The notes: generated from the sequence alone by a model not told the origin. Positions 21,355-21,665 are shown, numbered from the stretch's first letter. The stretch: 35,652 nt of DNA from a virus (IMGVR_UViG_2850773344_000006), one strand, 5' to 3'. Made by a program: numbers and translations.

Positions 21355-21429
21355 TGGAGCGGGCAGCGGGAATCGAACCCGCATCATCAGCTTGGAAGGC
21401 TGAGGTAATAGCCATTATACGATGCCCGC
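21355..21429 (-). tRNA. tRNA-Gly (anticodon UCC)
   Basis: Reverse complement GCGGGCATCGTATAATGGCTATTACCTCAGCCTTCCAAGCTGATGATGCGGGTTCGATTCCCGCTGCCCGCTCCA folds as a canonical cloverleaf with encoded CCA. Confidence 0.8.
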
Positions 21430-21432
21430 ATA

Positions 21433-21508
21433 TGGTGCCGACTACCGGAATCGAACTGGTGACCTACTGATTACAAGTCAGTTGCTCTGCCTGCTGAGCT
21501 AAGTCGGC
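21433..21508 (-). tRNA. tRNA-Thr (anticodon UGU)
   Basis: Reverse complement GCCGACTTAGCTCAGCAGGCAGAGCAACTGACTTGTAATCAGTAGGTCACCAGTTCGATTCCGGTAGTCGGCACCA; 7-bp acceptor stem; one A-C mismatch in the T-stem. Confidence 0.7.
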
Positions 21509-21510
21509 GC

Positions 21511-21587
21511 TGGCCCACCACCGAGGACTCGAACCTCGCACCGTCAACTTAGAAGGTTGATGCTCTATCCGGATGAGCTAGTGGTGG
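21511..21587 (-). tRNA. tRNA-Arg (anticodon UCU), with an atypical C1:G72 acceptor pair
   Basis: Reverse complement CCACCACTAGCTCATCCGGATAGAGCATCAACCTTCTAAGTTGACGGTGCGAGGTTCGAGTCCTCGGTGGTGGGCCA; all four stems pair. Confidence 0.65.
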
Positions 21588-21588
21588 T

Positions 21589-21665
21589 TGGTGGCCCTTG
21601 CTGGACTTGAACCAGCGACCTGGCGATTATGAGTCGCTCGCTCTGACCAACTGAGCTAAAGGGCC
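21589..21665 (-). tRNA. tRNA with CAU anticodon, probably Ile2 (lysidine type) rather than elongator Met
   Basis: Reverse complement GGCCCTTTAGCTCAGTTGGTCAGAGCGAGCGACTCATAATCGCCAGGTCGCTGGTTCAAGTCCAGCAAGGGCCACCA; resembles the remembered E. coli ileX more than metT. Confidence 0.65.

Follow-up and report, generated by a model that had tools for sequence, protein, structure and literature searches.

A four-tRNA cassette in a decayed Shigella flexneri prophage as a probable extra source of minor tRNAs for AT-rich acquired genes

Four tRNA genes lie head to tail in the viral contig IMGVR_UViG_2850773344_000006, which raises the question of what they do in a prophage that has otherwise decayed. 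We analysed the whole stretch of 35,652 nt, called the window below. ARAGORN found exactly four tRNAs in it, all on the minus strand at 21355-21665:

21589-21665, minus strand: tRNA with anticodon CAU, of the ileZ/ileX type (ARAGORN; Rfam 70.5 bits)
21511-21587, minus strand: tRNA-Arg (UCU), of the phage argN lineage (ARAGORN; Rfam 56.4 bits)
21433-21508, minus strand: tRNA-Thr (UGU), a near copy of chromosomal thrU (ARAGORN; Rfam 69.8 bits)
21355-21429, minus strand: tRNA-Gly (UCC), the same as chromosomal glyT (ARAGORN; Rfam 64.9 bits)

The genes are separated by A, GC and TAT (1, 2 and 3 nt), and all four encode CCA at the 3′ end. An earlier note on this DNA had described the same strand, anticodons, spacers and ends; ARAGORN, Rfam and the sequence bore it out, and every factual statement that it made on the cassette was correct. 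Since the Rfam scores of 56.4-70.5 bits (E-values 1e-13 to 1e-9) compare with a gathering score of 29 for the tRNA model, none of the four looks like a pseudogene; all have a cloverleaf and the conserved tertiary positions. The note had named a pseudogene call for the Arg or Thr gene as the outcome that would speak against it. ARAGORN calls both, with 56.4 and 69.8 bits in Rfam, and we reject the pseudogene reading on these scores, on the presence in thrU of the mismatch found in the Thr tRNA, and on the covariation of the Arg scaffold (both described below). Minimum free energy folding, applied to each tRNA by itself, failed to return a clean cloverleaf in any case, which is common with tRNAs, and carries no weight here. 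The cassette is real, intact and of a known kind, and its genes are already annotated in public Shigella and enteroinvasive E. coli (EIEC) genomes.

The first tRNA is 74/77 identical (96%) to ileZ of Stx phages and 69/77 identical (about 90%) to K-12 ileX, whose anticodon loop it shares. It retains C4:G69 and C5:G68 of ileX, reportedly the determinants for TilS, and shows a compensatory change from C6:G67 to U6:A67. At the top of the anticodon stem there is an A27.C43 mismatch, absent from the earlier note, where ileX has G.U. With an ileX-like body, both of the TilS pairs and the CAU anticodon, it is predicted to be tRNA-Ile2 and not tRNA-Met, able to read AUA once C34 is modified to lysidine; identical copies bear the name tRNA-Ile in PGAP annotations.

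The third and fourth genes are of chromosomal type. The Gly tRNA is identical to K-12 glyT (75/75), and the Thr tRNA matches thrU at 74 of 76 positions, differing only by U16C and U20C in the D-loop; their anticodon loops are those of glyT and thrU. The A-C mismatch that had been recorded in the T-stem of the Thr tRNA is present (A52.C62), but it is inherited from thrU, which has the same mismatch in K-12, and is no sign of decay. On the chromosome, thrU and glyT both belong to the thrU-tyrU-glyT-thrT-tufB operon, so that identity to a chromosomal operon, which the earlier note had raised, applies to the Gly gene and nearly to the Thr gene. It does not apply to the cassette as a whole. In contrast to that operon, the cassette has neither tyrU nor thrT, differs in order and spacing, is prophage-borne and has a promoter-like site of its own. 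A mere copy of the operon is rejected on account of the 1-3 nt spacers and the presence of the ileZ-type and argN-type tRNAs.

The Arg tRNA has the acceptor stem CCACCAC/GTGGTGG and hence a C1:G72 pair, followed by G73 and CCA. The earlier note called this pair unusual for bacterial tRNAs. This holds against chromosomal tRNA-Arg: about 44 of 46 chromosomal tRNA-Arg(UCU) homologues in other Proteobacteria, which have the same D and anticodon arms and sit in Pro-Arg-His operons, have G1:C72. It is not, however, peculiar to this locus but a mark of the argN lineage. The tRNA is 62/77 identical to argN of Stx phages, which likewise starts with C1:G72, and 58/79 (about 70%) identical to chromosomal argU; it shares the anticodon loop of argU, but its body differs throughout the stems. 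An alignment was made of 15 distinct tRNAs with the argN-type scaffold, drawn from phages, prophages and viral contigs. Standard pairs filled 97.5% of the base-pair cells, as against 29-53% when the partners were slid by 1-3 columns, both sides changed at four pairs (3:70, 7:66, 30:40 and 51:63), and C1:G72 was invariant (15/15). This invariance, together with the compensatory changes, marks C1:G72 as a stable trait of a named phage tRNA lineage and, judged by the alignment, as no defect. The view of C1:G72 as an oddity of this one locus is rejected, since Stx argN has it and, in a viral sample that is biased, so do 14 of the 49 unique Arg-UCU tRNAs. In the comparison with other Proteobacteria, copies with C1:G72 are limited to Escherichia/Shigella prophage cassettes, bar one Burkholderiaceae metagenome-assembled genome. 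The main determinants for ArgRS are A20, C35 and U36, and the tRNA carries all three, with A at position 20 of the D-loop AUCCGGAUA and the anticodon UCU.

By these comparisons the cassette is composed of an ileZ-type tRNA, an argN-lineage tRNA with the anticodon UCU, a copy of thrU and a copy of glyT. It resembles the ileZ-argN-argO trio of Stx phages (for example Stx2a_WGPS8, AP012540) in its place between Q and the late or cargo genes, in the identity of its first tRNA to ileZ, in a second tRNA homologous to argN with C1:G72, and in the same promoter-like module. Unlike in the trio, the second tRNA reads UCU and not UCG, near copies of thrU and glyT replace argO, and the spacers are 1-3 nt as against 7 and 13 nt; where the Stx phage has stx cargo, cassettes of this type have lysis genes and the window has an integrase island. 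Thus homologues of ileZ and argN are present (74/77 and 62/77), whereas argO, a second Arg-UCU tRNA of a different lineage, finds its best match in the window in the Thr tRNA, at 56/77. With thrU-like and glyT-like genes at positions 3 and 4 and no argO, the cassette is therefore a sister architecture and not the named trio. The Shigella and Salmonella lambdoid phages SfI, Sf6, ST64T, PS3 and P21 use the same niche downstream of Q, a Thr-UGU tRNA included, but have one or two tRNAs (Asn-GUU, Thr-UGU) and no four-gene cassette (PMC3636060). As a tRNA cluster the locus is ordinary, its class being well known from Stx phages; what is added here is the codon match to the invasion plasmid, the multi-copy co-occurrence with ipaH and the use of a phage tRNA as the joint of an island. 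A literature search gave nothing usable on ileZ/argN/argO or on the ipaH island, and a review of phage-borne effectors does not mention the cassette.

The surroundings show which element carries the genes. The landmarks are:

2941-4596: ipaH (NEL and LRR domains)
10506-13955, plus strand: sitABCD-like transporter genes
23971-24645, minus strand: Q-like antiterminator, upstream of the cassette and on the same strand

Also upstream on that strand are nin-region genes (DUF1367, YbcO), an IS element, one of many in the window, and an ORF6N antirepressor-like gene. In EIEC CFSAN029787 an intact lambda-like prophage has an identical cassette between Q and a class II holin, after which come lysis, terminase, head and tail genes, Lom, the tail fibre, a DUF4376 gene and ipaHe. 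In the window the DUF4376 gene (4776-5399) still adjoins ipaH, and the lysis, head and tail genes have been lost to IS elements and island insertion. The window is a decayed lambda-like, ipaH-carrying prophage of Shigella flexneri, degraded by IS elements. The cassette keeps the position between Q and the lysis/late genes, on the strand of the late transcript, with its lysis side replaced in the window by the integrase island. The order Q, tRNAs, holin in intact prophages, the EIEC one included, and the homology to ileZ and argN agree with the earlier note, which had likened the genes to the tRNA sets of lambdoid phages downstream of Q.

Several other elements were seen in this region. Just downstream of the Q-like gene, at 23750-23951 (minus strand), are a C4 antisense RNA, its a1/b1 target and isrK (Rfam 77.6, 52.2 and 75.6 bits), a group that corresponds to the Gifsy/P1-type anti-Q or antirepressor control module; the ORF6N antirepressor-like gene (21874-22521), with an IS element, follows this module. 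The interval between Q and the cassette varies among assemblies (L005/L007 versus L006/L008): Q is 190 nt from the first tRNA in some, and the IS element and ORF6N gene lie between them in others and in the window. CM001474.1 and CP037923.1, which we take to be the same strain, nevertheless differ in this interval. A hok/sok module sits in the nin region (26898-27072, minus strand; sok 118.1 bits), and the Shigella chromosomal sRNA CssrB (151.6 bits) directly upstream of ipaH (2630-2812, minus strand). Tail-fibre remnants (DUF4376, a tail-fibre N-terminal domain and Caudo_TAP) form two sets, at 4776-5399 and 14156-16388 (minus strand); their presence on both sides of the sitABCD-like genes suggests two prophage remnants or a duplication around sit.

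Immediately upstream of the first tRNA, two elements bear on how the cassette may be expressed:

21675-21704, minus strand: promoter-like site TTGCAG-N17-TATTAT (consensus scan, 9/12 matches)
21754-21778, minus strand: intrinsic-terminator-like hairpin AACCCGC-UUUAU-GCGGGUU with a U run (folding)

The −10 element ends 9 nt before the tRNA. A simple terminator scan missed the hairpin at 21754-21778, which folding shows clearly; the 46-nt stretch around it (21745-21790) folds at −22 kcal/mol, with z = −6.7 and none of 200 shuffles folding as well. Across six loci with otherwise diverged flanks the −10 never changes, and conservation extends to the −35 and the hairpin. The loops of the hairpin vary among relatives, and the hairpin is also kept in the Stx phage, where TTGCAG-N17-TATTAT-N9 precedes ileZ downstream of two terminators. 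A conserved promoter in this place might be the late promoter pR′, at which Q is loaded. We consider this unlikely, because terminator and promoter are conserved together beside at least four different, unrelated Q gene types and because two terminators lie upstream in the Stx phage. The company of so many Q types leads us to read the putative promoter as belonging to the cassette itself and not as a Q-specific late promoter.

What such a cassette could provide is indicated by codon usage, which we measured as ATA, AGA, AGG, ACA and GGA together per 1000 codons. In 48 K-12 core genes (14,474 codons) the figure is 16.3, and each of the cassette's codons is the rarest of its family. It rises to 33.5 in five flanking chromosomal genes (ygeV-xdhCBA-actS), to 40-62 in the phage and island genes of the window, and to 93.4 in the entry region of the invasion plasmid pINV (pCP301; 35 genes, 10,162 codons, 34% GC), where AGA makes up 47% of Arg codons, ACA 43% of Thr codons and ATA 38% of Ile codons. 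AGA and AGG amount to 10-37 per 1000 in the phage and island genes and to 24% of the Arg codons of ipaH, in line with the enrichment that the earlier note had proposed to look for in ipaH and neighbouring phage genes; its view that the cassette decodes rare codons is supported as well. Thus the four anticodons serve just those codons on which AT-rich acquired genes rely and which are scarce in core genes. Engineered plasmids of the pRARE/CodonPlus type supply argU, ileX/ileY, glyT and thrU-type tRNAs, and further ones such as leuW and proL, for AT-rich foreign genes in E. coli. Two counts go against such a role: GGA is little enriched in absolute terms (14.9 per 1000 in pINV, 6.7 in the core genes and 13.1 in the flanking genes, a small sample), and the phage late genes show no excess of ACA (8.8 per 1000), so that the match to phage demand rests mainly on AGA/AGG. 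A rare-codon rationale has been proposed for the tRNAs downstream of Q in Shigella phages, with ACA enrichment reported in phage (PMC3636060).

We therefore favour, with a probability of about 0.6, the reading that this is a lambdoid-prophage cassette with its own promoter, providing an extra supply of four minor tRNAs for AT-rich acquired genes. Gene structure, homology, genomic position, codon statistics and distribution are observed; from them we infer promoter activity, processing, charging and a benefit to expression, along the following course. A sigma-70 promoter of the cassette's own, just after the terminator, would give a single short precursor, and during induction Q-modified polymerase coming from upstream would read the cassette as well. 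RNase P would cut at each tRNA 5′ end, and exonucleases would remove the 1-3 nt that remain behind the encoded CCA of the tRNA before it. This would yield Ile2 (for AUA, once TilS has made lysidine), Arg-UCU (AGA/AGG), Thr-UGU (ACA) and Gly-UCC (GGA). The extra gene copies would raise the minor-tRNA supply to AT-rich genes of horizontal origin, most of all to the type III secretion genes of the invasion plasmid, but also to ipaH, the adjacent integrase and the genes of the phage itself.

Against a supply of minor tRNAs stand the sister cassettes, which have Lys-UUU instead of Arg-UCU, AAA being no rare codon. Among viral contigs the architecture CAU-Lys(UUU)-Thr-Gly is the commonest (22), followed by the window type (11) and the Stx type (10). 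In the Lys-UUU form an argN-type body has the anticodon UUU, an A51.C63 mismatch and U73, and its position 33 holds C where nearly all tRNAs have U; LysRS, which prefers A73, may or may not charge it. Examples are found in E. coli EPSSH018 (L015 4092-4168), at L019 3095-3171 and in about 22 IMG/VR contigs (for example L022). Elsewhere, in E. coli 720632 (L016 4174-4249), a thrU-like body has UUU through a single G35 to U change, and the viral contig L132 has UUU on both its second and its third tRNA. The Lys anticodon therefore arose on two scaffolds of the same cassette. The argN body occurs with three anticodons (UCG, UCU and UUU) and the thrU body with two (UGU and UUU), which offers a compact natural system for the study of anticodon switching, and the Lys-UUU form with the argN-type body could be a nuclease-resistant Lys tRNA.

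A Lys-UUU tRNA is the target of PrrC and PARIS, and its presence on both argN-type (with C33, in 22 contigs) and thrU bodies would suit a defensive role. Here the tRNAs would be replacements that resist or outnumber tRNA-cleaving toxins and nucleases (colicin D, PrrC, PARIS, retron effectors) and so keep translation going. That phage tRNAs replace those cut by defence nucleases is established for lytic phages (PMC10264068, PMC11555353), and the argN-type body, unlike argU throughout its stems, would fit as well. In the window, however, the Gly tRNA is identical and the Thr tRNA nearly identical to host tRNAs, so that neither could escape a nuclease specific for the host species. All four have the anticodon loops of ileX, argU, thrU and glyT; changes of that loop relative to the host, which mark the tRNase-evading type (van den Berg et al. 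2023), occur only in the sister cassettes (Lys-UUU with C33). Moreover, the four anticodons are exactly the rare-codon readers, as predicted by a supply role and not by a defensive one. A defensive role thus fits the sister cassettes better, and for the window's cassette we hold it to be quite improbable.

The distribution of the cassette was surveyed in 5426 complete E. coli genomes, using the exact window-type Arg tRNA with its flanks as the query and the 3′ half of ipaH as the mark of that gene. The exact cassette was found in 10 genomes, all EIEC, at 2-5 chromosomal places in each, and in no others; the 3′ half of ipaH was found in these 10 genomes and nowhere else. A single copy with 94-95% identity is present in each of six further genomes, and S. 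flexneri SFBU1023 has three cassettes of the window type and one of the Lys type. In several EIEC genomes the cassette is 24-28 kb from a chromosomal ipaH in the same lambda-like prophage, and therefore linkage explains at least part of the association; physical linkage alone can explain it. That the copies are identical may be due to recent spread and not to selection. A bolder proposal makes the cassette a natural rare-codon helper and the mark of the invasive pathotype: borne on ipaH prophages in 2-5 copies in every Shigella/EIEC genome examined, and expressed in lysogens from its own promoter, it would materially raise the translation of invasion genes. We hold this only tentatively and rather doubt it. 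If true, the genes of pINV would gain, about 1 codon in 11 being read by the four tRNAs, and the intactness of cassettes in otherwise decayed prophages would be explained. In any case, the codon demand of Shigella virulence genes can be tied, in a testable way, to a tRNA cassette on a prophage (93 versus 16 per 1000, with agreement with ipaH in 10/10).

The same copies could be functionless relics of a dead prophage, which persist only because they arrived recently and do no harm. The loss of lysis, head and tail genes after IS elements and island insertion agrees with this, as do the 100% identity of copies, in line with recent spread, and a decaying copy in EIEC RMDEC332 (L017), which also counts against a supply role. 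In that copy (L017 4213-4363) a Gly body has the anticodon UAC, a 1-nt deletion and a broken 3′ end without CCA, and the anticodon stem of the Thr tRNA has two broken pairs. Yet in the window the four genes, the promoter-like site and the terminator-like hairpin are all intact amid an IS-riddled region, every ipaH-positive genome has 2-5 copies, and the compensatory changes across the argN lineage speak of long-term constraint on the scaffold. We consider a functionless relic unlikely.

Downstream of the cassette, the homology to phage ends exactly at the end of the tRNA-Gly gene, where two further features are found:

21355-21380, minus strand: recombination core GGGTTCGATTCCC-GCT-GCCCGCTCCA at the 3′ end of tRNA-Gly (three-way alignment)
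19636-21240, minus strand: tyrosine integrase of 534 aa, of a glyU-type island (Pfam Phage_integrase and DUF6538)

The core has phage sequence upstream and glyU-island sequence downstream. Beyond the tRNA-Gly gene, the window matches the sequence downstream of chromosomal glyU (tRNA-Gly CCC) at 87-95% identity, integrase included; in other E. coli the chromosomal order is actS-glyU-int. The integrase gene shares its strand with tRNA-Gly and begins 115 nt beyond it, and IS1 and IS3-family elements have truncated the island. As the switch falls inside GCCCGCTCCA, which is common to both tRNA-Gly genes, the phage tRNA stays intact. A joint that lies at the 3′ end of a tRNA gene, next to an integrase and within 10-13 bp of shared identity, points to site-specific recombination as its origin, and the start of the island at the tRNA 3′ end next to a tyrosine integrase is as expected of an attL; a direct repeat or second copy of the core, as for an attR, was absent from the window at up to 3 mismatches. 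The joint may have formed by integration into a secondary site or by exchange with glyU; after a glyU-prophage inversion or exchange, the reciprocal joint would read actS - glyU 5′ part ...GCCCGCTCCA|GTCAGAGTCTTTCAG.

The integrase occurs with the same flanks in several assemblies, among them CP000266.1, CM001474.1 and CP037923.1, presumably S. flexneri serotype 5 strains, and the same joint is also found on a contig with a different Q gene (L009), that is, beside two different Q gene types. It was absent from the complete E. coli genomes examined and from S. flexneri SFBU1023. An independent second case is E. coli EPSSH018 (L015 4250-6075), where a 74%-identical integrase follows a Lys-type cassette; there the crossover lies further upstream, and the resulting tRNA-Gly is a chimera whose 3′ end is of the glyU type and whose stems hold two mismatches. 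Prophage tRNA genes can thus become joints for islands normally found at another chromosomal tRNA, a route to nested mobile elements. One could go further and see in the tRNA-Gly gene first of all a landing or recombination site for integrase islands, with decoding secondary, as the precise joint in several S. flexneri assemblies beside two Q gene types and the separate EPSSH018 event with its different crossover point might suggest. But at 40 of the 48 glyT-like 3′ ends in the loci examined there is no island, and 7 of the other 8 are S. flexneri loci collected through this very integrase. No second att copy lies in the window, and a prophage that carries a tRNA gene becomes a target as a side effect, not because selection favoured this. 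We regard a primarily structural role as most improbable, and keep to the supply of minor tRNAs as the probable function.

The integrase itself is rich in the codons read by the Arg tRNA: AGA and AGG form 49% of its Arg codons (37 per 1000 codons). Between the cassette and the integrase a simple scan, of the kind that missed the upstream hairpin, found no terminator. Given this codon load, the shared strand and the distance of 115 nt, the integrase may depend on the Arg-UCU tRNA and be co-transcribed with it.
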